Virus record (IMG/VR): IMGVR_UViG_3300031857_000034
Location: 1-64,000 of that record
Strand: one strand, 5' to 3'
DNA from: a virus
DNA: 64,000 nt
Below the pieces are notes generated by a model. It did not search any database and was not told the DNA's origin. It saw nothing but the letters and a program-made list of their open reading frames with translations. Below, piece after piece: positions 11,368 to 57,332 of the stretch. Within the stretch, counting starts at the first letter, position 1. The number at the start of each line of letters is the position of its first letter. A program made the position numbers and the translations under genes.

Positions 11368-12759
11368 TTAAGGCTTGAAGCCAACAGAATTTGGCGGAAC
11401 TTGGCGTTGTGTCACGCCCGAAAGTTCTCGTTGTACCGCTGCAGGATCCGGTTGTGCGTCAGGTTCGCGAACCACACTCTTGATCTTGGGTGCGCCACCG
11501 CTGGCATCGATTTGTTGTGTGTTGGTTAACTTCTGCGATATCCTGGCCACTGATTGATGATCGGCGCCTTGGTTCTGCATCCATTGCAGTATGATGGGTC
11601 TTGCATCTGCTTCGGGATCAGATTCGGCAGCATCGCTCAACATATCAAACAGCACATCATCGCCCAGCAAGTCATACAGCTTGCCTGTGGCATTTTGTGC
11701 ATTGGCGCCCAGTTTCAAGGGCTGGCTCATGATTTCGATCAGTTGATCTTCGGCTTCTTTGTCTTTGGGCAAGGACCAAGTGCCTTCTAGCAAACTATCA
11801 GCCCAGGCTTCAAACTGGTCTGCTTCAGCCATGGTGCCCAGTATGGGTGCTACTTCTGCTACCATTTCTTGATTGGGTGCTTGGCAAAACAGTTCTTTGA
11901 TGGCCTGTACTGTGCTCTCAGTCACAGCAACATCAGAGGATGAATCAAAATTGCTCACGTGAGTCTGATAGCCTCTGCGACCTGCCAGGCTCTTCAGGCG
12001 TTTTCTCTGCTCTTGATAATGACGGCGTGCAGCTTCTACCAGTTCAATCTGTGGCGTGTTGGCCCAGTTGCCTGCAGATACTCTGCGCAGGAAATTGCCC
12101 ATGACCGCACACTCTTTCACCATCTTGGTGATATTCTGTCCCACTGGATCCCAAGGATTGCCACCTTCGGCGCAATGGCGTGCCATGGCGCGGCCTCCTA
12201 CCAAACTGGTAAAGGGCAGTTTGAATCTCTGTTCATCTTCGGTTTCTATAAAAAGTTCTTGTATGTGTCTAAATCTAGCATCACCTTCGTTGATGTCACG
12301 GTTGTGACGTATTCTCAGTTTGGTCTTCTGTGGACCAGTGGTGCGGCTGATGTGTTTGCTGCCCCAATAGCGTCCTTCTGCCAAGTTGGCAGACTCTGCA
12401 CGTTTCAAACGATATGGCAGTTGGCTGGCATCTGATATTTTAAAGTCCGGACTTTTGCGTCTTGCAAAGTTGCGTAATTCTTGCATGAAAGCAAACCAAG
12501 CATCTCTGGCGCCTGAATCGTTGTCCATGTGTTTGCCAATGGCATCTGTGACCAGCAATTCTATGCTGAGATCTGGACTTAAGATTATGACCACGGAACC
12601 ATAGTTGGTACCGTTGTGCTCAAAGTCAAAACTGAATATATCGCTGTCTTGTATGGCCGTGTCTTGATTGCCTGTGTTGTTGAGGCTTTTGACATCAAAA
12701 CCCTTGGCTGTGAGCAGGTTGTACAATTGTTGTGCTATGTTGTCTTTGGTTTGGGGCAT
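11368..12759 (-). CDS. Hypothetical late (probably virion) protein
   Basis: 463-aa ORF with TAAATA 4 nt upstream of ATG; directly downstream of the terminase. Confidence 0.75.
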   Translation of the reverse strand: MPQTKDNIAQQLYNLLTAKGFDVKSLNNTGNQDTAIQDSDIFSFDFEHNGTNYGSVVIILSPDLSIELLVTDAIGKHMDNDSGARDAWFAFMQELRNFARRKSPDFKISDASQLPYRLKRAESANLAEGRYWGSKHISRTTGPQKTKLRIRHNRDINEGDARFRHIQELFIETEDEQRFKLPFTSLVGGRAMARHCAEGGNPWDPVGQNITKMVKECAVMGNFLRRVSAGNWANTPQIELVEAARRHYQEQRKRLKSLAGRRGYQTHVSNFDSSSDVAVTESTVQAIKELFCQAPNQEMVAEVAPILGTMAEADQFEAWADSLLEGTWSLPKDKEAEDQLIEIMSQPLKLGANAQNATGKLYDLLGDDVLFDMLSDAAESDPEADARPIILQWMQNQGADHQSVARISQKLTNTQQIDASGGAPKIKSVVREPDAQPDPAAVQRELSGVTQRQVPPNSVGFKP

Positions 12760-14345: not shown

Positions 14346-15233
14346 TCACTGCAAATAGATCTTTGACAGTTGTTCAATGGTGCTATCAGTGGTAGCGTCG
14401 TCGTGCTTGATACCTATGCCGCCTTTGGCCTGCCATTTGGCTATCTTTTCTCCGTGATCATCGACCAACACATTGGGTCTGCCACCTTTCATGGCATACC
14501 GGTGTTTGTCTGATGTAAAGATAGCATCTTGGCTGACACCGGGGGTGTGCCGGTCTAGCCAGCGGCGCTTGCCTGCTGTGCTGGCTTCGTGTCTCATGCG
14601 CAATGGTGCCGACAAGATTGTGTAAGGTATTTTGTGTTGTTGTAGCCAGGACAAGAGTTTTGCACCACCGCGTAGCATGGGCAAGGTGGCAAAAAATTCT
14701 TCTACGAACTCGTCGCCTTTGTCAACCAGTTTCATGATGTTGGCCGTTTGTGCAGCCACATCGCCCATGTCTCGATAATTTTTGAATCCAAACATCTTGG
14801 CCCACTGCAGGAAGAAGTCAGCCTGCACACCGTCCATGTCTAGATACAGATGTGGCTTGGATTGTTGTTGCGATTCGGATTCCCCAACATTGTATGTGGG
14901 ATCGGTTTTTTGACGCCGCATAGCCTTGGGTTGGCTGGGATCTACAGGATCTATATCGGTAGTGGTCAATCCTGTGCGTTCTAAATCTTTTATATACTCG
15001 TGCTCGGCTTCTTCACTGCCAAAGTTAATGATCGCGCTGGGTGGTCCTTTACCAAAGTCATGCCGGCCAAGGCCTTTGAGATTGCTGATATGCTGGCCTA
15101 GTTTGTACCAATCGTACACATCACTGACATCCACACGCACTGTGCCTGCAGGCATGGTAGGTTTGAATTCAGGACCTGGCGGCGTGGCATTGGGATCGTA
15201 GTCTTCTCTACGGACGAATTCTTTGGCTCTCAT
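14346..15233 (-). CDS. Putative internal head protein: leader, small paralog domain and HAD 5'(3')-nucleotidase-like domain
   Basis: Starts MRAKEFVRRE; C-terminal LYLDMDGVQADF, ILSAP, GKRRWL, VLVDD, W..KGG.GI.H. Confidence 0.8.
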   Translation of the reverse strand: MRAKEFVRREDYDPNATPPGPEFKPTMPAGTVRVDVSDVYDWYKLGQHISNLKGLGRHDFGKGPPSAIINFGSEEAEHEYIKDLERTGLTTTDIDPVDPSQPKAMRRQKTDPTYNVGESESQQQSKPHLYLDMDGVQADFFLQWAKMFGFKNYRDMGDVAAQTANIMKLVDKGDEFVEEFFATLPMLRGGAKLLSWLQQHKIPYTILSAPLRMRHEASTAGKRRWLDRHTPGVSQDAIFTSDKHRYAMKGGRPNVLVDDHGEKIAKWQAKGGIGIKHDDATTDSTIEQLSKIYLQ

Positions 15234-15418
15234 TTGACTTCCTGTACATTGCCTACCAAGGCAGTATGACCAAACTGATCCTTGACCAAGCGACGAGCAA
15301 GATTGGCATTGGGCGCAGTGATGGTGGTGTCTATCATCTGCGTATGGCCCACTTGTTTGATTTTAACACGCACCCGAAACAGTTTCATGTTTTTTGGCAA
15401 GAACTCACTGGCTTTCAT
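15230..15418 (-). CDS. Small hypothetical protein with capsid-targeting-like start
   Basis: MKASEFLPKN start; ATGA coupling to the next gene. Confidence 0.65.
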   Translation of the reverse strand: MKASEFLPKNMKLFRVRVKIKQVGHTQMIDTTITAPNANLARRLVKDQFGHTALVGNVQEVK

Positions 15419-15674
15419 CGTAATGCCTTTCGCCGGTGAGTGTGGGTTTGGCAAACCAAAGTTTGAACCACTCTTTGGTACCTGGCTTGATATCACGCTC
15501 GCGTTCAACGCGTCTTAGGTCTGCTGCTAGATCTGGTTTGACTGCCGAGCAATCATTACTGGACGCTGGCTGATCCAGGCCCGCAAGACGCTTGATGTCA
15601 GCCAGGCTGGTATCAACCGGGGTAAGTTCTACTTTTTTTTGAAGTTTTGCAGCAGAGTATGGATCAAACATCAT
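15405..15674 (-). CDS. Hypothetical protein
   Basis: ORF directly after CTAAATA; contains IKRLAGL (also the scaffold C-terminal motif LKRLAGL) and IKPGTKEWFKLWF. Confidence 0.65.
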   Translation of the reverse strand: MMFDPYSAAKLQKKVELTPVDTSLADIKRLAGLDQPASSNDCSAVKPDLAADLRRVERERDIKPGTKEWFKLWFAKPTLTGERHYDESQ

Positions 15675-15692
15675 CCAGTATTTAGCACTGGA

Positions 15693-16340
15693 TTATTTGA
15701 TATCCATCGGGCGTTTTTTACGCAGTAGGAAGGCAAAATGCTGATCTTGGATTTTTTCGTCTGAGTCTTTTTTGTTATATTCTAAGGTCATGACCTGATT
15801 CAGTTCTACATCAAATCCTGATTTATAAAACAATGCTGCCCACATTTCTAGTGTAAGAATACTATAAACTCCCTTGGCCATTTCATGATTAGCAGGCTGC
15901 TGTGGGCAAGGAACTTCAATGTACAGTGGTGCTTTTAATTTTAAAATACGATTGTATTCCATAAGAGTAAAGAATGGAAATACACTGTGTTGGATACACT
16001 GTCTGGCAAAGATAAAATCTACAGCTTCGTCTTTGTTTGGCAAGAAGCTCATATCCCTGCGATCAAAATTTAAATTTCTTTCTTGTAGACTACGCACGGT
16101 ATTGAGATTGTAATCTAAACAGCATATATTGGTATATCCATGTTTTAGCATTTCAATTTGGAAATAACCGTATCCCGAACCCACATCTTTGATATCTGCA
16201 TCTTTGGCAATATTCAAAGGTAGCACTATATTTTCGATGATTTGAGTTGTAATTTTTTCATCACGTTCGTTAGGCAGATGTTCGTCTAACTGAGTATAAA
16301 TGAATTCGTTATAAAATTTAAGTTTGATGGGTTCTAGCAT
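15693..16340 (-). CDS. Class I SAM-dependent methyltransferase
   Basis: DVGSGYG motif I, DMSFLP..DEAVDFIFARQCIQH, E.NRILK. Confidence 0.8.
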   Translation of the reverse strand: MLEPIKLKFYNEFIYTQLDEHLPNERDEKITTQIIENIVLPLNIAKDADIKDVGSGYGYFQIEMLKHGYTNICCLDYNLNTVRSLQERNLNFDRRDMSFLPNKDEAVDFIFARQCIQHSVFPFFTLMEYNRILKLKAPLYIEVPCPQQPANHEMAKGVYSILTLEMWAALFYKSGFDVELNQVMTLEYNKKDSDEKIQDQHFAFLLRKKRPMDIK

Positions 16341-16391
16341 AGTTCTATTAGTTATGCGCTAGATTGATGTGTTTTAGTTTTTTTGGAGGAC

Positions 16392-17102
16392 TTATGTTGA
16401 TACTTGAGCAAACCATGTGCTGTAGATATGGTCGGCCGTAGACTGATGCTGTGCCAGATATGGATCAATGCCGTTGAGTATGTCTTGTCCGCTTTGTACC
16501 GACGAGTATCTGATGCGTGCCGCAGCCCAGGTGGGATCTTCATCTGCTGCCCAGGCCTGTGCTTTTGCCACATCCATTTCAATATGGAACTGCATGGCCA
16601 GATGAGGTCCAAAGCACCAGGCCTGATTAGGACAAGATGCACTGGTGGCCAAACGTGTGGCTCCGGTGGGCACAGCAAAGGCTTCATAGTGCCATTGCAT
16701 GATCATGGCGGTGGGATTGGGTCCAAACCAATGATTGACCAGTGGATCAGACTCGTATTCAATAGGCTGCCAACCAATTTCGGGTTGTGGACTGGCAGTA
16801 ATGTTGGCACCCAGTGCTCGGCTCATCAGTTGTCCACCTAGACAATGACCTATCACTGGACGATCTTTAAGCACTGCCTGCAATATCAATATTTCTGCCT
16901 GACGATTTGACAACAAGGGATCGTTGGCGCTCATACCGCCGCCCATGATAGCCATGGCCGAGTAAGGTTCTATACTGGCCGGAAAGGCCTGATTGGATCC
17001 GGCATTGTATGTTTCATAGGGAATATTGTGTTGTTTTAACCAAGTAACGAGATATGCTGGCCACTCGGGAGTTTGATGTTGGAGTATTAGTACAGGTTTC
17101 AT
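16392..17102 (-). CDS. Type 1 glutamine amidotransferase (class I GATase, GMP-synthase-like)
   Basis: GGGMSAND, GHCLGGQL nucleophile elbow, QWHYE, QFHIE (Cys-His-Glu triad). Confidence 0.9.
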   Translation of the reverse strand: MKPVLILQHQTPEWPAYLVTWLKQHNIPYETYNAGSNQAFPASIEPYSAMAIMGGGMSANDPLLSNRQAEILILQAVLKDRPVIGHCLGGQLMSRALGANITASPQPEIGWQPIEYESDPLVNHWFGPNPTAMIMQWHYEAFAVPTGATRLATSASCPNQAWCFGPHLAMQFHIEMDVAKAQAWAADEDPTWAAARIRYSSVQSGQDILNGIDPYLAQHQSTADHIYSTWFAQVST

Positions 17103-17115
17103 AGACAATGAAAGA

Positions 17116-17514
17116 TCACTGTCCATATCCACGGAATGCCTTGACGGGACTTACTTTATGTACGTGCTCAGCTTCGGTACTGCGATTGTCTGTGAGTTTT
17201 TTAACTTCGCCGGCACCCACTGACTTGGCTGCTGCATTGATAATTCTTAGATCTTCGTCAGTATAGGTTGCCAACAATGGATCTCCAGCAAAGGCACCTG
17301 CTGGTGGTGTGGGAAAGTCTGGAGCGCCTGCCATTGCTATACCAAAACGCCATTGCGTATAAGGACTGCCACCTTGTTTGGTCTGACTGATATCAGGCAT
17401 GGAGATAGCGCCTTTGATAGCAGACTTGTGCGACTTGGGCAGTTTATCTGCGTCGGCTGGTACATCGGCTGCGCTGCCGAACTTGGCTTCAATAACAAAT
17501 TCTCGTGCTCTCAT
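17116..17514 (-). CDS. Putative internal head protein, paralog A
   Basis: Starts MRAREFVIEA; ends SPVKAFRGYGQ; similar to 18392 and 19737. Confidence 0.75.
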   Translation of the reverse strand: MRAREFVIEAKFGSAADVPADADKLPKSHKSAIKGAISMPDISQTKQGGSPYTQWRFGIAMAGAPDFPTPPAGAFAGDPLLATYTDEDLRIINAAAKSVGAGEVKKLTDNRSTEAEHVHKVSPVKAFRGYGQ

Positions 17515-18389
17515 TATAGATCTTTCATATTCATATGACCAAAGGGCGGATCAACGTGTGTGTTTTGCCACAGCGCACGATTGCTCAATATCTCAACCCA
17601 GACATTGGTGTCGGGACGATTGAGCCGCCAAAAATCAAATTCCATGTGACTACTGATAGGGCGGCAATACAAAGTCCGCTCCTTGGGCACACACAGTTGT
17701 TGGCTTGTAGTCCTCATCTTCTTTCGTTGTGTGCTGGTTCTCATGATATTTAGTTGGGCATCATTTATGTATACTTGGCACATTCCGTCTACTAGATCTT
17801 CGGGTTTTTTGGCAGATTTGACCACTTGTTCGGCCAGCAGTAATCTGGTTTCGCTGCTGAGTCTGCTGATAGTTTCGCTGGTGTTTGAAGGTTTCCATTG
17901 ATACCCTGCGTCGGGCATCCATAGTCCGTGATTGCTTCTGGCCACTGTGTTCTTCTTGGCAATTTTTTTCACGGTAGATCTAAAAGGCCCTTTGCCGTCA
18001 TCGTCAGTGGCTTCTATCAGATATAAATCATCCGCATTGAACACTATGGTGCAGCCACCTAGTTGTCGTTTGACCAACAACTTCACAGCATCCAAGGGAT
18101 CCTGATACAACAAAGCCTGTGCTATGATCCTGCCATCGGGACTGGTATGTTCTGTGCCGGCTTCCACTTCGCTTTCGTCGTCGTAGACATCAAGACTGGT
18201 GTTTAGTATACTAAGCCCGGCACTGTTGATACCTTCTTTATAGCCAGTGACACGATCGTGCATCATCATGCGATCCACACCTTGCTGTTCGCTTTCGATG
18301 AAATCTAATACAGGAGTGTAGTTGCGATCCCGATTCTTGGCGCCGGCCCATCCTATGCCAGGAAAGTATTTTGCAACTATGATGCACAT
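17514..18389 (-). CDS. N-terminal-nucleophile (Ntn) hydrolase, NRDE/TANGO2 or C45-like
   Basis: Cys at position 2 (MCIIV), KNRDR, EGINSAGL.I.N, ARSNH. Confidence 0.65.
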   Translation of the reverse strand: MCIIVAKYFPGIGWAGAKNRDRNYTPVLDFIESEQQGVDRMMMHDRVTGYKEGINSAGLSILNTSLDVYDDESEVEAGTEHTSPDGRIIAQALLYQDPLDAVKLLVKRQLGGCTIVFNADDLYLIEATDDDGKGPFRSTVKKIAKKNTVARSNHGLWMPDAGYQWKPSNTSETISRLSSETRLLLAEQVVKSAKKPEDLVDGMCQVYINDAQLNIMRTSTQRKKMRTTSQQLCVPKERTLYCRPISSHMEFDFWRLNRPDTNVWVEILSNRALWQNTHVDPPFGHMNMKDL

Positions 18390-18391
18390 GG

Positions 18392-18772
18392 TTACTGCCC
18401 GTAACCCCGGAATGACTTTACTGGGCTGGTGCGATTGACGTAATCTGCTTCTAGACTGCCTTTTTCTATATATTCTTCGGGTTTCATGTCTAGCTTTTTC
18501 ATTATAGCGATGAGCTTTTCGCGATCGTATTCGGTGTATGCGCTGAACAGCGGCAAGTTACCAAAGAAACCGATGTCATCTACTTTATCAAGTTCTTTTG
18601 GGTCCATACCGGCCAATGAACACACGCGATAGAAGTCGTAGTATCTACCCCAATATACATCGCCCGAACCGCCGGGACCTACCAATCCTGGATGTGCCAT
18701 TTCAAACTCGTGGCGGGCGGCAGAACGCCGATTGTTCCTTTTGCCTTCGGTAATGAATTCGTGTGCTCTCAT
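18392..18772 (-). CDS. Putative internal head protein, paralog B
   Basis: Starts MRAHEFITEG; ends SPVKSFRGYGQ. Confidence 0.75.
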   Translation of the reverse strand: MRAHEFITEGKRNNRRSAARHEFEMAHPGLVGPGGSGDVYWGRYYDFYRVCSLAGMDPKELDKVDDIGFFGNLPLFSAYTEYDREKLIAIMKKLDMKPEEYIEKGSLEADYVNRTSPVKSFRGYGQ

Positions 18773-19740
18773 ACTGTAACTTTTATCCTTGGCATCATCT
18801 CGCCCTCCGGAGCAAGTATGTATGGTTGATCTGATTTGATGTTAGGCAATAATTCTTCAATCGAAGTAAAATATTGTGCTGTTCGTCTTGGCACGCTCAT
18901 TATCAATAGACCATTGAATCCAGAATATGCCTGATAGTTGGCATATCCAACAGTGATAACAGCCTGTTTGATGTCTTGTGCTGAACCATTCATTAGGGCC
19001 CGAGCATACATACTATTGTCTACTTTGTTAAAAGTGGCCTGAGCAATAAGATCACATAATTTTTTCATCTGAGCTGGTTTTAGCCCAATTTTTTGTTTGA
19101 GATATTCACGTATCTGTAACCAAGCATTTACATTGACTCGCTGTGGTATATCAAATCCGCTGACATCCATGAGTGCTTCTCTTATGGCATTAAGGCTCAT
19201 ATTGGCTTTGCGCGGATTGATCCAACGTCCACCACTCTTCTGTTCAGTCTTGAGTTCTACAAAACCAACATCTTTTACCTCTAAATCTCCGCCGCCGGAT
19301 TCTTGCCCGGTAAATCGTATGTCTGGACTCATGATGCTGAATGCTAATTCTCCGGGACCAACACCTTGTTTAATAATTGGAACTAGATTGTTAAAAACAC
19401 GTTGCGGGAAACCGGGAGTTACAAATTGATCATAACCAACTTTGCTTTTACTAAACAAATTCTTGATATCAATAAAACCTTTGGAGTAATTGTCAGCAAA
19501 AGATAATTTTTCATCTACTGTGCCCTCAGTATTCAACACTACTTGTGTAAGTATATCCAAGAATTTTTTTGCATCAACATCCTGTTTCATTGCTGTGTTT
19601 ATTCTTCCAACAACATCGCTAGATTTGAGAGCATTGTAAACTTTGTTAAGCAGAGATTCATCATTGGTTTGATTTATCAAATCAGTGACAACTGCTTTGA
19701 GTTTTTGTGCATCTTCTACAATAATTTCGTGTGCTTTCAT
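18769..19740 (-). CDS. Putative internal head protein with a possible PD-(D/E)xK nuclease-like domain
   Basis: Starts MKAHEIIVED; GPGELA...GGDL.V....VELK motif; visibly AT-richer than neighbours. Confidence 0.55.
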   Translation of the reverse strand: MKAHEIIVEDAQKLKAVVTDLINQTNDESLLNKVYNALKSSDVVGRINTAMKQDVDAKKFLDILTQVVLNTEGTVDEKLSFADNYSKGFIDIKNLFSKSKVGYDQFVTPGFPQRVFNNLVPIIKQGVGPGELAFSIMSPDIRFTGQESGGGDLEVKDVGFVELKTEQKSGGRWINPRKANMSLNAIREALMDVSGFDIPQRVNVNAWLQIREYLKQKIGLKPAQMKKLCDLIAQATFNKVDNSMYARALMNGSAQDIKQAVITVGYANYQAYSGFNGLLIMSVPRRTAQYFTSIEELLPNIKSDQPYILAPEGEMMPRIKVTV

Positions 19741-20120
19741 TTCAACACACCTTTGACTGCTCTCACTGGACTTTTCTTTCCTGTGGTGGATGATTCTTCA
19801 CTTGCTGCTGTTGATAATTGCGTTGCGCCGCCCACGTTCATCATGGCCAAGGCTTTTTTCATCAACGCTACTTCGCTTTCATCGTAGGCAACAACAATCA
19901 TACCATCACCCCAGGGAGACTCTTTATGGAATGTATCGCTGCCTTCTTTTTCCAGTGCTTCTTTAGCGCCAGCACCTGCTAGTGCTACGCCATAGCGATA
20001 CTGCACGTATGAATTTTGATTAGGCAATCCCGGAATGATAAATGTGGATGGTAATGCGTCTGCTACGCCTGGTTGCAGACTGCCGTGAGCTTGCTCACTG
20101 ATAAACTCACGGGCACGCAT
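19737..20120 (-). CDS. Putative internal head protein, paralog C
   Basis: Starts MRAREFISEQ; YVQYRYGVALAGA; ends SPVRAVKG. Confidence 0.75.
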   Translation of the reverse strand: MRAREFISEQAHGSLQPGVADALPSTFIIPGLPNQNSYVQYRYGVALAGAGAKEALEKEGSDTFHKESPWGDGMIVVAYDESEVALMKKALAMMNVGGATQLSTAASEESSTTGKKSPVRAVKGVLK

Positions 20121-20469: not shown

Positions 20470-21231
20470 TTACCAAGCGCGGCACGACCAATAACGTGCC
20501 TTCCAGCGCGGTCCTGGATTGTCACAGTTGTGTCTTGCACGGAAACTTTTACGACGCTTGGGATTTGACTTTTTGATCTTCATGTTGGGATCGCCAAAGT
20601 TGACCTTGACCACGTTGCCTTTAGGTCCACGAACATACACCTTGGATTTTTTTACATCACCCTGCATGGGCTTGCCCAGTTTGACTTTGCGACCACGATA
20701 CTCTGCTTCTTCTAAATCTGCACTGGTCATGGTACCTTCTTGATCGGCTGTGAGATCTTCCTTTTGGATCTGCGCCTGGGATAGGCCTTTACGTGCAAGA
20801 TGTCTTGCTTTATGTTTAATTACATTACCAAATTGATCTTTGTTTGTGATTTTTTCGTCGGGTGTGAAAGGAATGTCTTTGTCTGCTCGGCGATCGATTT
20901 CTGCTTGCTGAGCGTCAATTTCTTTTTGCAGACGATCAGCTTCGTCGCCGTACTCGCGAGCAGCGTCTCCTAAAGAACGACCTGACAGTGACTTGAATCT
21001 CGAATCAATTTTGCCTAATGCAGATTTTGCATCAGCAACATATCCATAGCCTTCCAACAATGCCACGCCACGATCGTCTAATTCTATAACAATACCGTCG
21101 TCAACACATTCAGTGATATAGCCAGAAATCAGCATTTCATCTCTAGCGATTTCAATTTCAAATACATCACCCACTGCTGGCTTGGTAAGATAATCTTCGG
21201 CTTCGGTGAGATAATCTTTTAGGCTGCGCAT
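20470..21231 (-). CDS. Putative internal head protein with a basic C-terminal domain
   Basis: Starts MRSLKDYLTEAE; C-terminal KVNFGDPNM...RRKSFRARHNC...ARYWSC domain after DLEE. Confidence 0.75.
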   Translation of the reverse strand: MRSLKDYLTEAEDYLTKPAVGDVFEIEIARDEMLISGYITECVDDGIVIELDDRGVALLEGYGYVADAKSALGKIDSRFKSLSGRSLGDAAREYGDEADRLQKEIDAQQAEIDRRADKDIPFTPDEKITNKDQFGNVIKHKARHLARKGLSQAQIQKEDLTADQEGTMTSADLEEAEYRGRKVKLGKPMQGDVKKSKVYVRGPKGNVVKVNFGDPNMKIKKSNPKRRKSFRARHNCDNPGPRWKARYWSCRAW

Positions 21232-23963
21232 TATCCTGCTTGTCCTTTAAGCGTGGTAATATCGTTGTCTCCTTTGTAGCCTTTGGCATACTGAAGTTTC
21301 ATACCATTGAGACCGCCACTGAGACGATTGACCAACTCATCAACATCGCCGTATTCTGTAGCGTCTGCTGTATTACCTGAATTTTCTTCTGTTACTGCTT
21401 CTTCTGCACAGGTACTGGGATCGTATTTTTGATACATCTCGCGGCCCATACCAGCCATCTTAAGCAGTTCAACTAAACTATGTGCATCATCCTGCGTGGC
21501 TGTGACTGTAACTGTGTCGTCGCCTGCGCTGCTTTGATTGGTGCTGACTGTAATGTCTTCGGCAACCATTTGCTGGAACTGACTTTCATAAGATTCGTAG
21601 ACACCTTTGCCATAGTAGCCGGACTTGGATGTTTCTGACTCATCGACCTTTTCTTCTTTGTCGTCTTTGTCCTCGTCTTTTTCTTTGCTATCTTTTTTGT
21701 CGTCGTACTCGATGTCTTTCTTGACTTCTTCGCCATCTTCTTCTGCGTCGTCGTCGCGCTTTTCAGCATCAGTTTTGTCGTGATCACGTTTGTCGTCGTA
21801 CTCCACATCTTTGGCTACTTTTTCAGCAGCCTTTTCTGCTTTGTCGTCTTTTTCGGCATCACTTTCTTCCTTGACTGGCATACCAGCCAATGCTTTCATG
21901 CGCTCCAACACAGCAATGGTTTCGTCGATTTCTTTGGTGCTGAAATCCTGACCAAAAGCCTTGAATGTATCTTTGCCAGATTTTTCGGCTTGTGCATCCT
22001 GCTGTTTAAGATATTCGCCTTTGCTGACTTCGTCGAGATCGGTTTCTTTGACTGAACCGCGAGACACATGAGCCACAGCTCGGTTTACGAAATCATCTAT
22101 GCTGTCTTCGTCGCTTCCGAAAGGTTGTTGCTGTTTCAACCATTTGTTCAATATAGGATCTTTGGCACGAGACTCTTGGGGGTCGAAGGCCTGCATGTTG
22201 GGATCATACTGCAGATGTATCTCAGTGCCATTGAACATGATCTGTGAAGTCATCTCATCGTCGCCCAGCACATAGGTGTATCGGTTGCCTTTGTCGGTGA
22301 CAAAGGTCTCGGTAGAAGCTTCTTTCACAGGCAATTCAAGTGCCATGTCTTTGGCTCGTTGTAGCACACGCTGACCAGGATCTTTGATGTCTTTTTTATA
22401 ATCCTGTGTCATGGTTTTGGTCAATGTGGGATCGCCTGGTTGCTGCCAAGGTAAATCTTTGCCTGACAGGATACCTTCGTCCATGTCTGCATTTTTCTTC
22501 TTCCACGCTGTGGCATAAGCGATGGATTTTTCTTGTGGCGTTAGTTTGCCATCTTTGGCATAGCCTTGTTTGATATGCTTGACCATGCGCTCATACTTGT
22601 CACCCGGAGGTGCTTTTTCTGTCATAGGAGCAGCAAAGGCAGCAACTTCAACACCTTCGACCAGGGCCTGACATTTAACAGCATTGCCATTGAACGCAAC
22701 ACCAGGATAAGCTGCACGGATTTCACGCTTCCACGAAGGATACGATTCCGCTATCATCATGTTGGCTGCTTCGATTCCTTCTTTGACTGTGCGACTAAAT
22801 TTTTCGCCGCCTTTCATGCCCCAGGTTGTGCCTTTGTGTTTGGGAAGTTTGTATTGACTGGCCTTGGGAGCTTTGCCGCCCCAGGGTAAACTTGCAGAAG
22901 TTTTTTCAGATTCTTTTTTCTTGGGACGACCGCGGCCACGTGGCTCATCTGATTGTTCATCTTCGTCATCGTCTTTGTCATTTTCCCAGTCTATCTCTTT
23001 GGCCTTGTGTTTGATACCAGTGGCTGTTTTAGTCACGGTGCCACCTTTGTGAGTCTTTTCTTGTTCGCCAAGTGTGACTCCTGCTGCGTTACGACCGTCA
23101 TCGCCGGTGTCGGGCATATTGACATTGGCCTCACCTAGGGGAGGATCATAGGCTCCCATTTCATCATTGCTCTGTGGATCGGTGACCATGCCTGCTTCAT
23201 CCATCTTGTCATAGCGTGTGCGAATCTTGGCCATGGTCTCTTTGCTAGCGTGGTCACGTCCGGCTTTTTGCAAAGCTTTCATGCCTTCCTCGCCATATTT
23301 TTTCTTGCCGAGATATGCTTGTAGTGCAGATTCATCCATGGTATCTTCGCCCACAGATTCTTTGGCACGTAGTTTGGCCAACACAGCACCTGCTACTCTT
23401 TCACCGGCTTCTTTGCTGCCATAGCGCTCACCGGCTGACTTTGCAATTTTACTAAAATTCTTGCCAGGCTTGCCAATGTCTTTTCCAGCACTGGCCTTCT
23501 TGGCGCTGTAACCAACTTCAGCCACAGGTGTTAGATTCAATCCACCCGAATAGTTTTCATTCAGGATAGACTTTGTGCGGTTTATGCTTTCCACAAGGCT
23601 ATCTGCTTGATTGGCCATGGTGCCCGAGGGTGTGATCATGGTGATACCAGCGTGCTTGAGTATGCCTCTGAGTTCAGGCGATTCTTTAACTTCTTTTTTG
23701 TCTGCTGCGGCTTTCTTCATGGATTCTTTTTTGTCGCCGTCTTTGTCAAGATCCAAGAAGTCCGGCTTGTCGCCTTCCATGACTTCGCCTTCGGGGCACT
23801 CGCAGTGGCTTTCATACATACCGCATTCGTTGCAGGTTTCACCATGCACACCTTCGCTCACAGTCTTGAAACCATATGCCTGAGTGTTGTTGGCCGCATC
23901 ACGATAGTGAGGATCTTTTTCAGCAATGGCTTTGAGTTTGTCTAATACGTTGTAAATGTTCAT
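21231..23963 (-). CDS. Large modular charged protein, putative protease-processed head polyprotein
   Basis: 910 aa, D/E/K-rich; short modules separated by (L/V/M/I)-x-E-(S/A/G) motifs; contains DxDxDG and GRGRP motifs. Confidence 0.75.
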   Translation of the reverse strand: MNIYNVLDKLKAIAEKDPHYRDAANNTQAYGFKTVSEGVHGETCNECGMYESHCECPEGEVMEGDKPDFLDLDKDGDKKESMKKAAADKKEVKESPELRGILKHAGITMITPSGTMANQADSLVESINRTKSILNENYSGGLNLTPVAEVGYSAKKASAGKDIGKPGKNFSKIAKSAGERYGSKEAGERVAGAVLAKLRAKESVGEDTMDESALQAYLGKKKYGEEGMKALQKAGRDHASKETMAKIRTRYDKMDEAGMVTDPQSNDEMGAYDPPLGEANVNMPDTGDDGRNAAGVTLGEQEKTHKGGTVTKTATGIKHKAKEIDWENDKDDDEDEQSDEPRGRGRPKKKESEKTSASLPWGGKAPKASQYKLPKHKGTTWGMKGGEKFSRTVKEGIEAANMMIAESYPSWKREIRAAYPGVAFNGNAVKCQALVEGVEVAAFAAPMTEKAPPGDKYERMVKHIKQGYAKDGKLTPQEKSIAYATAWKKKNADMDEGILSGKDLPWQQPGDPTLTKTMTQDYKKDIKDPGQRVLQRAKDMALELPVKEASTETFVTDKGNRYTYVLGDDEMTSQIMFNGTEIHLQYDPNMQAFDPQESRAKDPILNKWLKQQQPFGSDEDSIDDFVNRAVAHVSRGSVKETDLDEVSKGEYLKQQDAQAEKSGKDTFKAFGQDFSTKEIDETIAVLERMKALAGMPVKEESDAEKDDKAEKAAEKVAKDVEYDDKRDHDKTDAEKRDDDAEEDGEEVKKDIEYDDKKDSKEKDEDKDDKEEKVDESETSKSGYYGKGVYESYESQFQQMVAEDITVSTNQSSAGDDTVTVTATQDDAHSLVELLKMAGMGREMYQKYDPSTCAEEAVTEENSGNTADATEYGDVDELVNRLSGGLNGMKLQYAKGYKGDNDITTLKGQAG

Positions 23964-23965
23964 GA

Positions 23966-24598
23966 TTATTTTCCTACGTTGATGGTCATATCGCCGGCAC
24001 GCATTTTGGCAGGGCGGCTTACTCGACTGAAAGGACTGGTATTGTCCTGTGGCAAGTCATTGGTGGTTTTTGCTTTGGGTGTTTTACCACCGGCTACTTC
24101 AAACTTTGCACCGTCTTTGGCTGCTTCTGCTGCCATGGCAGCATCTCTAGTGGCATAGCGTTTGCTGAGTTCTTTTTGCTCGGCACTGGGTGCGCCTAGA
24201 TCTGTGGTCATTAACAAAGAATCTTTTTCGCTGGTTTTTTCTGTATCCAACTGTCCTTCGGCATCCTTTTCAATGCTGTCGTCCCACTTGCGATCCACTA
24301 CCACGATGTTGGCAGTTGGCACACCGCACAAGTGAACCTGCTGCTGGATCTCATCTAGGCTGGCCGGATACTTGAATGTAAAATCAATAATGTTGATTTC
24401 GATGTTTTTCAAGCCAGGAAAATCCGAAGGTGTGGCCAGGATAGGCGTTTTTTTGGCCGTGCTCATTGACACCACATCGTACTTGTCTAGGCGTTGCTTG
24501 ATATCTGCCTGGCATTTGGCATCCAGTTCACCGGCAATTTTTATGCGGTAACTGAACTCCCTGGCATCTTCTATTAGGTATTCTTTAAAACTTTTCAT
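23966..24598 (-). CDS. Putative internal head protein
   Basis: Starts MKSFKEYLIED; CTAAATA upstream at about 24621-24627. Confidence 0.75.
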   Translation of the reverse strand: MKSFKEYLIEDAREFSYRIKIAGELDAKCQADIKQRLDKYDVVSMSTAKKTPILATPSDFPGLKNIEINIIDFTFKYPASLDEIQQQVHLCGVPTANIVVVDRKWDDSIEKDAEGQLDTEKTSEKDSLLMTTDLGAPSAEQKELSKRYATRDAAMAAEAAKDGAKFEVAGGKTPKAKTTNDLPQDNTSPFSRVSRPAKMRAGDMTINVGK

Positions 24599-32249: not shown

Positions 32250-32257
32250 TATTTATA
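32250..32257 (-). promoter_or_regulatory. T4-type late promoter for the sheath
   Basis: Exact TATAAATA, with SD AAAGGA downstream. Confidence 0.75.
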
Positions 32258-48900: not shown

Positions 48901-50094
48901 TTAACTGAACGACAGATTTTGGACGGCTATCTCGCCGACATAATCGCCCGCATTGCCAAAAGACGATGCAGTATTTGTCAATTCTATGTAGCCATATCTC
49001 GTCATAAACGAAACGACTGGCTCGAATGTGCTGGGATCCAGAACAACACCGCTTGACATCAAAGGAATGTATGGGCAGTAGAATGCTGGAGCATCAGCTT
49101 CGCTGGCGCCTTTGTAGCCAACCAGAACTGGTGTCGAGTCGTTAGCATAGCTATCAACATAAACACGCATAGCACTGTTGAGTGTACCAACAAACTTGGT
49201 GTTTGTGGGTGCTTCAAATGTGCCTTCTGTTGTGCGAGCAAAAGCAGAAGTTGTTGCGCTCTGGAGCACTGTCAAGGAAGCGGGCGAAACTACAGCGTAG
49301 TTACCTGCACCACGACGTGTGCGCTGAGCGATCAGGTTAGCAACACGATTGATCAGAACTGCCAGTGCGGCGTGCTCATCACCAACGTAGGTTGCTGTAC
49401 CACTAACGGTAGCCTGGTTGTATGTGAACTCTGTTGCAGCCAATGAACGCAGGCTCAGCAGGATCTCTTGGTCGATCTCAGTTGTGATCTCTTGTGCGAG
49501 AGCAGCCATGATTTCGGCCTCAACATCGATACCGTGCATTGCTTGTGCGTCTTGTGCAGCTTCAAATGTCCAACGAGCCTGGAGCTTACGTGTTTTAGCT
49601 TCAACGGCCTGCTTCAGGATTTGAACGGAAATCTTACGACCGCCGTCGCCTTCTAAAGCTGCTGTGTTGGAACCAGTGTAAGTGCTCTGAGTTGCGCTTG
49701 TGCTTGCACCAGCAGAGTATGCTGTTGCAATCAAGAACGGGCTCAGTGCTTCCTGGCCAGCTGTAACGCTGGTTGCTGCTGCTGATGTGTCTGTCATGCT
49801 TTGTGCATAACGAACACGCAGAGTGTGGATCTGACCAACGGGGCCAGTCATGGGCTGTACACCAACGAGTTCGTTGGCAATAACAGTTGGCATAACACGG
49901 CGGATCACTGGAAGGATCACACGATTCAGTGTAGCGATATTACCGCTAACTGTGGTACCTGCAGATGACTCTTTCAGGTACTTGCGAGTGTTTTCTAAAA
50001 CTACACCCATTGTGCTGCGACGGGAACCATTGAGTCCTTCTAGTAGGGCTTCTTTGGTCTCGTCCCAACGGCTTTCTAACAGTTCTTGTGACAT
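48901..50094 (-). CDS. Major capsid protein (T4 gp23-like)
   Basis: RRVMP..IA.ELVGVQPMTGP, A.TRKL.ARWT.E.AQD..A.HG.D.E, EID.EI, YCPYIPL, TRYG. Confidence 0.97.
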   Translation of the reverse strand: MSQELLESRWDETKEALLEGLNGSRRSTMGVVLENTRKYLKESSAGTTVSGNIATLNRVILPVIRRVMPTVIANELVGVQPMTGPVGQIHTLRVRYAQSMTDTSAAATSVTAGQEALSPFLIATAYSAGASTSATQSTYTGSNTAALEGDGGRKISVQILKQAVEAKTRKLQARWTFEAAQDAQAMHGIDVEAEIMAALAQEITTEIDQEILLSLRSLAATEFTYNQATVSGTATYVGDEHAALAVLINRVANLIAQRTRRGAGNYAVVSPASLTVLQSATTSAFARTTEGTFEAPTNTKFVGTLNSAMRVYVDSYANDSTPVLVGYKGASEADAPAFYCPYIPLMSSGVVLDPSTFEPVVSFMTRYGYIELTNTASSFGNAGDYVGEIAVQNLSFS

Positions 50095-50121: not shown

Positions 50122-51222
50122 TTAAAGCCCTGCCAGTCTCTTGAGCTCAATGACGTTTGATGCGTCATCAGACTTGGGTTTGACGGCAGATTTATCACCA
50201 GTGACTTCTTTGTGTACGCTTTCGGTAATGGTCTGTTTTGCAACAGCCACTTTCCGAGCGGCGTTCTCAAGAACTGCTGGTAGATACTTTTCAAAAGCAG
50301 TGCGAAGACGAGGTGTTTGCACGCTTTCTAGTAAGTTACGCATGATTTCTGCTTTTTCCTCGTTTAAAGGAGAGAGCAATTCATCCATAGTGCGGCTACG
50401 CTCTGTGGACTCCTTGATCATACGAACTTCACGTTCCTTGTTCTCAACCAATACTTTGGCAGTACGAGTTGATTCAATGGCTTCGGCCAATTTCTGTTCT
50501 TTGTCAGCAATCACAGCCCGGAGCTTGCGTACTTCGGCATTCTCATTGAGATGAGTGCCTGCAAACTCTGTGACATATGCTTCAAAGATACGACGACCAA
50601 AATTGTTCTCTCGAGCAATTTTAACGTCTTCTTTGAGCTGAGTAAGTTCAGAACGTAGATGTTCAGCAACACGCTGACCTAACTTGGCAGCAGATTCTTT
50701 TACAAACTGCTGTTTCAATGCTGTGAGTTGCTTCTTGGCTTCAGACACAAGTTTGACTTTGGTGTTAACCACGTCACGCTTGTCCTGGGCAAATTCAGTA
50801 ATCTCACGAGCCAAAGCTTCAATTACAAATCGTTCTAAACGATCCACGCTCTCGGTATGAGTGCGACGATCCGAACGTAGTTCCTTGATTTCCTCAGCAA
50901 GTTTACCAACCATGAAGTTGTTAAACTTCTCGGCTGATTCTTTCATCTTGACTTGGAAACGCACACGGTCTTCATTGAGACCACGGCGCTCTTCTTGGAA
51001 CTCTTGCATTTCTGCTTTGAGGCCTTCGGTTACCATGCGATCTAGGGCTTCGACCATAACTGACTTGTCATGCTCATAGCGTTGTGCAAATTCCTCACGG
51101 AGTTCTGCACGCACCTGCTCACGAGCTTCATTTAGTTTGGCCTCAAATGCTTCTGTGATGGCTTCACCAGTTGACTCGTTGATCAGTTGGCTATCTAGCA
51201 ATGGTTTGATTGCGTCTAGCAT
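50122..51222 (-). CDS. Prohead core scaffold protein (T4 gp22-like)
   Basis: Long coiled coil between the protease and MCP genes, with many xxE sites. Confidence 0.85.
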   Translation of the reverse strand: MLDAIKPLLDSQLINESTGEAITEAFEAKLNEAREQVRAELREEFAQRYEHDKSVMVEALDRMVTEGLKAEMQEFQEERRGLNEDRVRFQVKMKESAEKFNNFMVGKLAEEIKELRSDRRTHTESVDRLERFVIEALAREITEFAQDKRDVVNTKVKLVSEAKKQLTALKQQFVKESAAKLGQRVAEHLRSELTQLKEDVKIARENNFGRRIFEAYVTEFAGTHLNENAEVRKLRAVIADKEQKLAEAIESTRTAKVLVENKEREVRMIKESTERSRTMDELLSPLNEEKAEIMRNLLESVQTPRLRTAFEKYLPAVLENAARKVAVAKQTITESVHKEVTGDKSAVKPKSDDASNVIELKRLAGL

Positions 51223-51231
51223 TACGATCTC

Positions 51232-51882
51232 CTAAATCTTCAGATCCTTGATGAACTTGACAATCTCGTTCTTCAAGTGTTTCTGTGCAAGTGTGTCACC
51301 GCCCACAGCATTCTTGCTCATATCAAACATTCTATGTCCGTATCTCATGTTCATGAGGCTTTCATACACTGTTCGAGGATAAGCGTTTGGTGCTGATGGC
51401 TGTGCCACGATGTCGACAGTGACTATTTCAAAGTCACTGACACGTCCGGTCGCGTCATCAACATTACCTGATCCGCGACTCGAAACTCCTAATTTCACAC
51501 CCGACTGCAGCATTGTATCAACTAACTTGCCCATGGGTGTGGGTAACAACTTCAGTTTACCTATGCCGTTGGGGCCATCCATCCACATTTTCTGGATCAT
51601 ATGGCTCACACGGTCTAGATTAATTTTTAAATCTTCTGGATGATCTACTTCACCGCACACAGAGAATCCACCGTTGATCTGCTCATTGAGCTGATCCACT
51701 GCTGATCTAATCTGTTGCACTGGGTAAACTCGTCCATTGGCGTTTTTAACGTCACCCTGGATAAAGATGCCTTCCATGAAAGTGGAGGGCTCTTTACCTG
51801 GAGCTTCTTCTCGGCTCTCAACCACGATCTTGGCAGCATCGTAACTGAGAACTTCTTGTAAGTGACGGTTCCCTTTAAACAT
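51232..51882 (-). CDS. Prohead protease (T4 gp21-like)
   Basis: GIFIQ...KN.NGRVY, GE.DHP, VSH, TPMG, GVSSRG.G, D.V..PSAP.A. Confidence 0.95.
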   Translation of the reverse strand: MFKGNRHLQEVLSYDAAKIVVESREEAPGKEPSTFMEGIFIQGDVKNANGRVYPVQQIRSAVDQLNEQINGGFSVCGEVDHPEDLKINLDRVSHMIQKMWMDGPNGIGKLKLLPTPMGKLVDTMLQSGVKLGVSSRGSGNVDDATGRVSDFEIVTVDIVAQPSAPNAYPRTVYESLMNMRYGHRMFDMSKNAVGGDTLAQKHLKNEIVKFIKDLKI

Positions 51883-51887
51883 CTAGA

Positions 51888-52766
51888 TTAGCTCTTGATT
51901 GCTTTTAAAGGACTCTTGGTGTTAACACCCGAAGCCTGGCTCAGCGTGGGCTTGGTAGCAGGTTTCATGGGAGCCATGTTTTTACCAGCAGTGTTCTGCA
52001 GGCCAGACTCAATGTCAGGTGCTTTTTGTGTTGTTGGTGCTTTGGTACCATCGGGGTTTTCAGCAGTAAACTTGCTGGAAGCAGGTTTGGCCACCGAACC
52101 AGTTACACTGGCGCCGGCATTGTTAGCGTTTGGGCTTTTGGAGTCAACACGCAGTTTGTCACCGCCTGTTGTGCCTTGACCTGCCAAACGATCACCACGG
52201 TCAACAGCAACTTTTTGCAGTTGAACGTTTTCTGCTAGGCTTTCCTCAACTTCTTCTTCTTCGGCTTCTACTTCTGAACCCATGGTCATTTCATCGTCTT
52301 CTTCGCCGTCGACCATACCATCGTCGCCGCCAATGACTTCTTCAAATTTGGCCAGTAGTTCGTCTAGTTTGCTGTCAATGCTGGCGATATCACCTTCGAG
52401 ATCGCCGCCTGCGCCCATTTCGTCGGCAAAATCATCGCCGCCAACCATTTCTTCTTCGGCACCCATGTCCATGACTTCTTCGTCATCTTCCATGGCTGTT
52501 TCATCGGCATCAACATTGGCACTGATATCGTTCATCAGTTGATCTGCTGCATCGCCGCCCATGGTTTCCATTTCCATGGACTCTTCCATTTCTTCATCTG
52601 CAGATTCTTCCAAATCCTCATCGGATTCTTCTTTGAGTTCTGCTGCCATGAGGTCTTCATAGATACCACGGCTTTTTTCCACTACGATTTCGTGAAAAAG
52701 GTCACGAGCCTTTTGTTCTTCGTCGTTAATGACGTACTCAATGAGTTTTTCAAACTTGCTTGACAT
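51888..52766 (-). CDS. Acidic prohead core protein (gp67/gp68-like)
   Basis: Very D/E/M-rich, with LKEE, LEES, MEES, LAEN sites; lies between portal and protease. Confidence 0.7.
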   Translation of the reverse strand: MSSKFEKLIEYVINDEEQKARDLFHEIVVEKSRGIYEDLMAAELKEESDEDLEESADEEMEESMEMETMGGDAADQLMNDISANVDADETAMEDDEEVMDMGAEEEMVGGDDFADEMGAGGDLEGDIASIDSKLDELLAKFEEVIGGDDGMVDGEEDDEMTMGSEVEAEEEEVEESLAENVQLQKVAVDRGDRLAGQGTTGGDKLRVDSKSPNANNAGASVTGSVAKPASSKFTAENPDGTKAPTTQKAPDIESGLQNTAGKNMAPMKPATKPTLSQASGVNTKSPLKAIKS

Positions 52767-52886: not shown

Positions 52887-53108
52887 TCATAAGCCCGGCA
52901 CCGCAGGAGGCGGTGCATACTGTTTGCGGATGTACTTTAATTTCTCATCGTACTCAAACTTGCGCACTTCTTGCATACGGCGTATTTTATTGATCTGAGT
53001 CAAGGTAAGTTTGGTTTTACGCAGTTGGCGCAGTTTAGGACGGCTGTTGTCGTCCTGTAAGTCCTGATAGCCTTCGGGCTCTTTGTCAAATAATTCAAGA
53101 AAATTCAT
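52887..53108 (-). CDS. Small head-module protein
   Basis: RK.KLTL.QINK.R.M...R..E; TAAATA 5 nt upstream. Confidence 0.7.
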   Translation of the reverse strand: MNFLELFDKEPEGYQDLQDDNSRPKLRQLRKTKLTLTQINKIRRMQEVRKFEYDEKLKYIRKQYAPPPAVPGL

Positions 53109-57286: not shown

Positions 57287-57332
57287 TGTTTAACCGCAAT
57301 AAGTAGTGTTACCTTATTTATTGGACAGAAAA

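Follow-up and report, generated by a model that had tools for sequence, protein, structure and literature searches.

Can one late gene of a tailed phage encode a whole set of small head-internal proteins, set free by the phage's own prohead protease? The question is raised by an uninterrupted open reading frame (ORF) of 910 codons at 21231..23963, minus strand, in IMG/VR virus record IMGVR_UViG_3300031857_000034, of which positions 1 to 64,000 are hereafter the window. A preliminary description had read its product of 910 amino acids (aa), here P0001, as a polyprotein divided into exchangeable modules by more than 20 sites of the kind that the T4 prohead protease, gp21, cuts after Glu. With a probability of roughly 58%, the ORF is judged to encode a cassette-built precursor that would be taken into the prohead core and cut after many of these glutamates by the phage's gp21-type protease; from the sequence we infer that this cleavage would turn the 910-aa protein into a library of peptides inside the prohead.

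Results

A glutamate-specific motif recurs along the 910-aa protein

Expected numbers of motifs were taken from composition-preserving shuffles of the protein (n=5000), and h-x-E denotes [LVIM]-x-E throughout. The 910-aa protein holds 30 such sites where 14.8 are expected (standard deviation 3.4), a number reached in 0/5000 shuffles; all 22 tetrapeptides listed in the preliminary description are among them, and the enrichment that it had predicted over shuffled sequence is present. At 19 of the 30 sites the Glu is followed by S/A/G/D/E (6.4 expected, z 5.3), and the narrower form [LVIM]-x-E-[SAG] is found 15 times against 3.6 (z 6.5). Counted with another residue in place of Glu the motif shows no excess, [LVIM]-x-D being rarer than chance (7 vs 14.4) and [LVIM]-x-K neutral (19 vs 17.7), and other hydrophobic-to-Glu spacings showed no enrichment over shuffles. 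Val at P3 is the main source of the excess (15 vs 4.6), and at P1' S (2.7-fold) and G (1.8-fold) are preferred and P (0.3-fold) is avoided. Cutting at all 30 sites would yield 31 fragments with a median of 22 aa and a maximum of 95 aa, including basic ones (+7, +6, +4, +4) and a very acidic one (-19).

The same statistic singles out multiply cut proteins of T4

As a positive control the statistic was run on 40 T4 late-region proteins, among which gp21, gp22, inh and gp68 come out highest. In gp22 both the strict T4 motif [LI]-x-E (16 vs 5.7) and the relaxed [LVIM]-x-E-[SAG] (10 vs 2.5) are enriched. Alt and gp24, which gp21 trims near their termini only, showed no motif enrichment, and neither did the tape measure gp29 (10 vs 11.0). 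The discrimination of Glu over Asp in the 910-aa protein also matches T4 internal protein IPIII, in which Asp at position 10 of the leader blocks processing, according to the available parts of a review (PMC9026906). The Glu-specific excess, shared with T4's multiply cut proteins and with the scaffold-position protein of the phage itself, is therefore counted as a protease signature.

The phage encodes a gp21-family protease and a scaffold-position protein with the same signature

Genome-wide counts were made on one contig of 127,758 bases, over the 100 ORFs of at least 100 aa among 116 called. The genome has a T4-type core comprising portal, gp21-family protease, scaffold-position gene, gp23-type capsid, sheath, tube and a gp4-like head-completion protein. 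The head genes that bear on processing are listed here, a slash marking the candidate cleavage point.

53130-54866: portal.
51232..51882, minus strand: gp21-family prohead protease, the presumed processing enzyme (phrog_207, E 3e-57; T4 gp21 structure 5JBL, E 1e-13).
50122..51222, minus strand: 366-aa scaffold-position protein, adjoining the protease and carrying the same motif signature.
48901..50094, minus strand: gp23-type major capsid protein, with four sites (LLE/S, LLE/G, VLE/N and LKE/S) within its first 43 residues.

The protease had already been proposed at this position, and its assignment to the gp21 family is now confirmed. It keeps the His in GEVDHP and the Ser in SSRGSG, which we take to be its catalytic pair. 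Identity between the capsid protein and its counterparts in PA5oct-like jumbo phages is 65%.

In the scaffold-position protein h-x-E occurs 29 times against 13.2-13.4 (z 5.0) and h-x-E-[SAG] 14 times against 2.4, with the Asp and Lys versions flat. This protein too accepts V and M at P3, and its P1' positions favour S (4.2-fold) and A (2.3-fold) and hold no P; the P1' preference for S/G/A and the depletion of Pro noted above are likened to this pattern and counted in favour of cleavage by the protease. When the 100 ORFs are ranked by z, the scaffold-position protein (5.0) is followed by the 910-aa ORF (4.3) and a 463-aa ORF (3.3), and the late sigma factor, at 2.6, stands at noise level.

A coiled-coil heptad was tried as an explanation of the motif in the scaffold-position protein and rejected, as the spacings do not fit ([LVIM]E 8 vs 13.1; [LVIM]...E 4 vs 13.0). 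The 463-aa ORF, at 11368-12759 of the window, has no Pfam match and contains 13 h-x-E sites against 6.0; it may be another substrate of the protease.

Cassettes are exchanged between near-identical phages

The 910-aa protein is made up of cassettes of 11-95 aa, of basic, acidic, DxDxDG-like and DUF6321-like types, which come and go, replace one another, are duplicated and change their order among phages that are otherwise nearly identical. Its parts, from the N-terminus, are as follows.

23919..23963, minus strand: N-terminal 15-residue amphipathic leader MNIYNVLDKLKAIAE, ending in an h-x-E site (IAE); candidate capsid-targeting leader.
23796..23834, minus strand: Cys knuckle CNECGMYESHCEC, residues 44-56; related loci match this segment more widely than any other.
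23682..23774, minus strand: "DLD" cassette with a DxDxDG-like loop, residues 64-94; swapped in close homologues and freely mobile in the family.
23346..23516, minus strand: "YSAKK" basic cassette, residues 150-206, net +7; begins directly after VAE, at a junction distance of 0.
23196..23330, minus strand: "SALQ" basic cassette, residues 212-256, net +4; ends in MDE/A.
22917..22943, minus strand: AT-hook-like stretch PRGRGRPKK, residues 341-349; Pfam AT_hook E 0.32, 11.4 bits against a cut-off of 17.4, not significant.
22656..22745, minus strand: "SWK" module, residues 407-436; common to PA5oct EST35_0203 (42% identity over 31 aa, E 4e-5).
22476..22616, minus strand: DUF6321-like cassette, residues 450-496, between MTE and MDE sites; missing from P0020.
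22044..22319, minus strand: 92-aa cassette, residues 549-640, between two VKE sites; absent from 21/37 close homologues.
21639..21866, minus strand: acidic repeat region, residues 700-775, net -19; holds the duplicated unit ending in EYDDK.
21234..21638, minus strand: C-terminal region conserved family-wide, residues 776-910; helix-strand-strand-helix core in a low-confidence model.

Three of these elements had been noticed beforehand. The DLDKDGDKKE loop lies at residues 71-80 and the copies of the acidic EYDDK-ending unit at about residues 701-726 and 732-757, both as described; the AT hook survives as a stretch of sequence but its Pfam match falls below the cut-off. Pfam and PHROG scans of the ORF returned no functional, scaffold, core or tape-measure family, the only Pfam matches being AT_hook and PA26, both below cut-off. 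A nucleotide search of the stretch against cultured phages gave no match, protein matches among cultured and large phages are module-sized only (cyanophage DUF6321 proteins and huge uncultured phages), and the ESM Atlas returned unnamed viral clusters only, all below 0.9.

Relative to the window protein, the 37 closest homologues comprise 24 distinct structural variants, although the flanking genes are 93-99% identical in the loci with DNA; among phages whose flanking proteins are this similar, versions of 776 to 1027 aa occur. The exchangeable modules of the preliminary description are thus borne out, the homologues not being collinear. By eye, a 63-aa block ending in VDE replaces a 105-aa block after VAE, a 212-aa block is added between VAE and MAE in P0035, and the DUF6321 block between its two sites is deleted in P0020. 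P0003 and P0025 have gained a 36-38-aa block once or twice between MDE and MDE, and P0018 a block between two DMEE sites. In close homologues an EGNEFSG...VKE cassette stands in place of the DLD cassette.

Ten junctions were collapsed by hand from the variants among the 37 closest homologues and expressed in coordinates of the window protein. A site is found no more than 3 residues away from seven of the ten (background 0.226, P 0.0018) and no more than 1 residue away from four (P 0.012); one coincides exactly with a site (P 0.29). Junctions were also called automatically, from an all-against-all comparison of 266 proteins with flanks at least 85% identical, which gave 80 clusters; for 33/80 a site is no more than 3 residues away (null 0.196, P 7e-6) and for 8 the coincidence is exact (null 0.031, P 0.003), with control counts of 4 for h-x-D and 11 for h-x-K. 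This automatic figure of 41% is diluted, because automatic calls include ends caused by local divergence. The expectation that module boundaries fall at the sites therefore holds in part: boundaries are at or next to h-x-E at roughly double the chance rate, but in only about 40-70% of junctions. Among 149 diverse sequences, BLAST block ends fall on the Glu of h-x-E in 449 of 5054 distinct ends (8.9% vs 2.6% background, 3.4-fold), compared with 0.8-1.8-fold for other P3 classes.

The YSAKK cassette is present in 87/149 family representatives, DLD in 89/149 and SALQ in 68/149, and nine tracked modules are combined in 68 architectures among them. Over the same representatives DLD precedes YSAKK in 28 cases and follows it in 24, and precedes SALQ in 19 and follows it in 26; the C-terminal region always comes after YSAKK, SALQ and DUF6321 (45/0, 36/0 and 21/0). 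One small member, P0158, has the order leader, SALQ, YSAKK, DLD. Nucleotides flanking the cassettes share runs of 2-6 bases only and the motif is written with different codons, so that it is kept at the peptide level and not at the DNA level. An origin of the junctions from recombination repeats was rejected on the same DNA evidence.

The family is large and keeps its place in the late gene block

The 910-aa ORF belongs to a very large, hypervariable late-protein family of T4-core, PA5oct-like phages. Of 8000 candidates scored in a word-indexed search, 1543 proteins matched at E<=1e-3, and an exhaustive search of 50%-identity representatives gave 2144 matches, 911 of them below 1e-10. Members follow a common plan: an amphipathic leader ending in h-x-E, a Cys knuckle in many, a variable chain of cassettes and a conserved C-terminal region. 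In 145 new representatives h-x-E is again in excess (2520 vs 1500.9, 1.68-fold), more so with a following S/A/G (1103 vs 388.5, 2.84-fold), and h-x-D-[SAG] stands at 0.53-fold. Pfam scans of seven relatives returned DUF3008 and two sub-threshold matches only. An alignment of the C-terminal region (14 members, 30-38% identity) has 12 invariant columns, of which two are site glutamates (sites 802 and 859).

Many related loci match residues 42-60 of the 910-aa protein, the region of the Cys knuckle. A knuckle of the form CxxC-x(3-6)-CxC recurs at varied places in family members (P0047, P0188, P0227 and P0261; 23796-23834 in the window), usually with an h-x-E within a few residues after it, and is probably a metal-binding mini-module.

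Synteny was followed in 46 related viral loci, whose flanking proteins are sometimes only 25-60% identical. The conserved order is sheath, tube, tube-like, 129-aa, gp4-like, 167-aa, 210-aa and family gene. The ORF just downstream of the 210-aa homologue was picked regardless of similarity, which gave 33 distinct ORFs, among them six close relatives of the window protein and nine that run off their contig; two loci yielded none. The complete ORFs are mostly 600-1650 aa long. Together the 33 contain 636 h-x-E sites against 391.5 and 328 h-x-E-[SAG] against 95.4 (3.44-fold), with h-x-D at expectation (317 vs 331.1, 0.96-fold). The N-termini of these equivalents form a leader class (MDFKSLLQSMDAISE, MNFKDMLEKLSLLSE and MNIYNVLDKLKAIAE) that ends in h-x-E exactly at residue 15 in 11/25 distinct leaders and within residues 9-26 in 18/25, the latter being true of 75/201 control ORFs from the same loci. 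Combinatorial variability and a late/virion-gene position are confirmed for the family.

Neighbouring genes carry T4-type leaders

The ORF is tightly packed between two genes.

23966..24598, minus strand: 210-aa upstream neighbour with leader MKSFKEYLIE/D, the conserved synteny anchor; its PA5oct homologue is annotated as a virion protein.
20470..21231, minus strand: 253-aa downstream neighbour with leader MRSLKDYLTE/A; its start overlaps the stop of the 910-aa ORF by 1 nucleotide (nt).

The 910-aa ORF itself begins 2 nt after the upstream stop. A TATAAATA box, which is the exact T4 late-promoter word, lies at 32250-32257 on the minus strand, ~30 nt upstream of the start of the sheath gene; the window has only 3 copies, which is no enrichment (17/100 shuffles reach 3). 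From this box the genes run head to tail up to the 910-aa ORF, and this arrangement, together with the tight coupling, therefore suggests that the ORF is expressed late along with them.

Between 17.1 and 24.6 kb six ORFs start with MRAREFVIE, MRAHEFITE, MKAHEIIVE, MRAREFISE, MRSLKDYLTE or MKSFKEYLIE (T4-type leaders at 23966-24598, 20470-21231, 19737-20120, 18769-19740, 18392-18772 and 17116-17514), and a seventh (14346-15233) has a degenerate version. T4 IPII and IPIII start with MKTYQEFIAE and IPI with MKTFKEF...ITE. Both genes flanking the 910-aa ORF are among the leader-bearing ones.

The 253-aa neighbour (20470-21231) ends in a C-terminal basic domain of ~80 aa, phrog_7595, that is 75-84% identical in distant loci (L011, 11620-11868; L015, 9602-9841) despite a lack of conservation there in the remainder of the protein; judged by sequence, the domain is another mobile module behind a T4-type leader. 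Further downstream, in an island at 14346-20120, leader-bearing paralogues of ~130 aa (17116-17514, 18392-18772 and 19737-20120) alternate with larger genes. The larger ones encode an NT5C-like nucleotidase (14346-15233; degenerate leader), a methyltransferase at 15693-16340, a class-I GATase at 16392-17132, a protein of 291 aa whose sequence opens with MC (17514-18389) and, at 18769-19740, a leader-bearing protein of 323 aa that matches TerB weakly. The island looks like packaged enzyme cargo.

Single cassettes of the 910-aa protein are also met elsewhere. The DUF6321 cassette sits in 179-aa proteins of the T4-like cyanophages S-WAM2 and S-H9-1, which start MKTFKQLRE, and is bracketed there by LIKE (or LQE) and MKE sites. 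The cultured phage PA5oct has the same gene order, with EST35_0203 (498 aa) directly after the 210-aa homologue and the record note "structural protein, ESI-MS/MS" (electrospray ionization tandem mass spectrometry). By eye EST35_0203 is similar in its leader, Cys motif and ...KFKG tail; its motif excess is modest (h-x-E 12 vs 8.4; with S/A/G 5 vs 1.8). A term search of the main text of the PA5oct paper found nothing on processing or on EST35_0203.

In PA5oct (L048, 9633-15742) four consecutive genes of ~500 aa, EST35_0203-0206, follow the 210-aa homologue, three of them with the ESI-MS/MS note. EST35_0206 has 17 h-x-E sites against 9.3 (z 3.0), and EST35_0204 is unlike the other three by eye. 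In the window, a 292-aa ORF (51888-52766, leader MSSKFEKLIE), with no PHROG match, and a 73-aa ORF (52887-53108) separate protease from portal, in the place of gp68 and gp67 in T4. A 794-aa protein (54902-57286) adjoins the portal and hub genes and has lysozyme-like (582-674) and tape-measure-like (494-556) PHROG matches; it may be a tail-length or hub lysozyme protein. Outside the window, at 76544-94645 of the genome, a single 6033-aa ORF occupies the plus strand.

Discussion

The data point to a precursor that would be cut many times, but a number of observations weigh against that reading. The preliminary description had likened the sites to those of T4 gp21, yet only the relaxed V/L/M/I-x-E form is in excess; the strict T4 form, [LI]-x-E, shows no enrichment in the 910-aa protein (10 vs 7.1, P 0.16), and acceptance of Val and Met at P3 can be deduced only from the scaffold-position and capsid sequences of the same phage. 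In the 145 representatives h-x-K (1.30-fold) and E-x-h (1.43-fold) are mildly raised as well, so plain shuffles miss some sequence structure. Junctions do not always coincide with sites: three of the ten curated ones miss, by 6 aa at residues 57 and 100 and by 10 aa at residue 290, 47/80 automatic clusters are not within 3 aa, and BLAST ends show a general preference for Glu (0.190 vs 0.093). Conservation of individual sites in aligned blocks is weak, the P1 Glu being kept in 42% against 31% for other Glu and the P3 hydrophobic class in 50% against 50% for others, and some sites are almost never conserved (876 in 5%, 687 in 14%); what seems to be kept is the density of sites, not their exact position. 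The site MYE/S sits inside the knuckle CNECGMYESHCEC, where it is probably protected and unlikely to be cut, so not every one of the 30 sites would be usable. The leader MNIYNVLDKLKAIAE ends in IAE yet differs from the MKTYQEFIAE-type leader of the neighbours, and homology to a PA5oct virion protein amounts to one 31-aa module. Structure prediction is of low confidence, both for the full-length single-sequence fold (predicted local distance difference test, pLDDT, 41.8) and for the C-terminal region from a 14-row alignment (pLDDT 52.5).

The explanation closest to a multiply cut precursor departs from it solely over what becomes of the pieces and what they are used for. The protein could be a disposable core filler, an accessory scaffold or core component like T4 gp22 or gp68 that merely fills the prohead and is degraded to fragments that leave, its cassettes being functionless and their turnover a sign of weak constraint. 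Its motif signature does equal that of the scaffold-position protein and of gp22 and gp68, its architecture is extremely variable, its predicted order is low and its largest predicted fragment is 95 aa. Against this, individual cassettes, YSAKK and DLD among them, are well conserved across representatives that are <=50% identical overall, and a cassette (DUF6321) also stands alone behind a T4-type leader in cyanophages, which argues for a function of the pieces, and a canonical scaffold-position gene is already present; a pure filler is thus unlikely, though it deserves serious attention. Rather less credit is given to a largely uncut modular virion protein, in which h-x-E-(S/G/A) would be a linker or helix-end feature at the joints and at most the leader would be removed, leaving a protein of near full length in the head or neck. 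Many head proteins of SPN3US are uncut, according to the available parts of PMC10052503. The weak positional conservation, the lack of strict-motif enrichment and the location of several sites at predicted helix C-termini (residues 15, 94, 136, 256, 406 and 802, in a low-confidence model) would all suit such a protein. Linkers or helix capping do not, however, predict discrimination of Glu over Asp, and Glu is not the usual preference at a helix C-terminus. An uncut protein also leaves unexplained why only the scaffold-position protein exceeds the signal of the 910-aa ORF in the genome, and why, in T4, this statistic sets apart the proteins that are cut many times.

Position downstream of sheath and tube, where many myoviruses have a long variable gene, might suggest a tape measure or another tail-internal protein, and the related P0225 has a weak TMP_4 Pfam match over one cassette (E 0.0099, below cut-off). 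A range of 776 to 1027 aa among near-identical phages is unfit for a length ruler, the scans of the ORF found no tape-measure family, T4 gp29 lacks the motif enrichment, the low-confidence model has no long continuous helix, and a 794-aa protein with tape-measure and lysozyme matches adjoins the baseplate-hub gene (54902-58172); this identity is very improbable. Equally hard to credit is a non-virion product, such as a regulator or DNA-binding protein with an AT-hook, in which composition or periodicity would have produced the motif excess as an artefact. In its favour, z is 2.6 for the late sigma factor, a protein that does not belong to the head, and the h-x-K and E-x-h excesses point the same way, but the signal of the 910-aa ORF is far above that of the sigma factor (z 4.3-6.5) and is reproduced in known substrates of T4. 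The ORF moreover has a fixed place in the late structural block between genes with T4-type leaders, is tightly coupled to both (2-nt gap, 1-nt overlap), and its AT-hook match is not significant.

If the protein is a multiply cut precursor, its leader would carry it into the prohead core, where the gp21-type protease (51232-51882) would then cut after many site glutamates, as T4 gp21 does to gp22, gp67 and gp68, to release up to about 30 peptides and mini-domains. Basic pieces would probably stay with the DNA and may be injected; for acidic pieces, exit from the head or a role as internal peptides is probable. The motif that is cut could double as a neutral joint, so that cassettes would be exchangeable without harm to their neighbours. 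More tentatively, and as a possibility rather than an expectation, the single late ORF may be a protein-level gene-cassette store: independent packaged and possibly injected mini-proteins (DNA-coating, ion-binding or anti-defence) would be released at prohead-protease sites that serve as a universal joint for shuffling, duplicating and trading cassettes, in effect the internal-protein repertoire of T-even phages merged into a single evolvable polyprotein, which would be common among uncultured T4-core phages.

Should the cuts be real, this would be, as far as searches show, the first described tailed phage with many small head-internal products from one cassette-built precursor, and it would tie together the breakdown of scaffold by gp21, the leaders that target internal proteins to the capsid, and polyvalent packaged proteins. 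The cassettes are an obvious place to look for small peptides that bind DNA or counter host defences, the shuffle statistic could be applied to any phage with a gp21-type protease to pick out head proteins that are cut many times, and the cultured PA5oct offers a model in which the prediction is directly testable. A literature search found no paper on such a cassette family and none on DUF6321 or DUF3008, its two named module families.

Among known systems, the T4 core proteins gp22, gp67 and gp68 (and inh), which gp21 cuts to short fragments, resemble the 910-aa ORF in having a gp21-family protease, in being late genes and in the use of Glu rather than Asp, and the multi-site signature of gp22 is of the same strength (10 vs 2.5, compared with 15 vs 3.6 with S/A/G). 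The 910-aa ORF differs from them in being 3-10 times longer, without detectable homology in family scans, and in lying outside the portal-protease-scaffold-capsid block; its cassettes are conserved and mobile, and its P3 residue is mostly Val, not Leu or Ile.

T4 IPI, IPII and IPIII and the polymorphic internal-protein genes of T-even phages, from which gp21 removes a 10-residue leader, share the logic of varied cargo behind a conserved leader cut after Glu, and the neighbours of the 910-aa ORF and the cyanophage DUF6321 proteins carry leaders of T4 appearance. In T4 there is one gene and one cut per cargo, whereas the 910-aa ORF has many cargo-like units, 30 candidate internal sites and a different, 15-residue leader. 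The polymorphic T-even locus was reportedly the subject of Repoila et al. 1994. Reviews regard the capsid-targeting leader as a possible evolutionary route for varied proteins into capsids, in the portions of them at hand (PMC9026906, PMC3012670).

Polyvalent proteins, as portrayed in the accessible sections of Iyer, Burroughs, Anand, de Souza and Aravind 2017 (PMC5512222), are in about a third of cases encoded by phages, and this third is predicted to be carried in the head and to be delivered along with the DNA; some are proteolytically processed. They share with the 910-aa ORF a large, combinatorially variable multi-module make-up among late/virion genes. In those sections they have recognisable enzymatic or binding domains (2 to 15 conflict-related ones) and often their own peptidase, whereas Pfam finds no such domains in the 910-aa ORF, whose modules are of 11-95 aa and whose processing would be in trans, by the prohead protease.

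The head propeptides of giant phages (SPN3US gp53 and gp54; inner-body proteins of phiKZ and 201phi2-1) likewise have several protease motifs per protein and are cut smaller (PMC10052503, in the parts available). Their proteases use A/S/G-x-E (PMC5694885), unlike the V/L/M/I-x-E of the 910-aa ORF, their cuts remove an N-terminal propeptide from one mature protein, and the available parts of PMC10052503 make no mention of cassettes exchanged at the sites. PA5oct EST35_0203 occupies the same position and shares one module (E 4e-5); its motif enrichment is weaker and most of its cassettes are unrelated. Core degradation by gp21, internal-protein leaders, polyvalent proteins and SPN3US propeptides are thus all familiar, and what would be new, as far as searches show, is a single ORF of mobile cassettes joined by prohead-protease sites.

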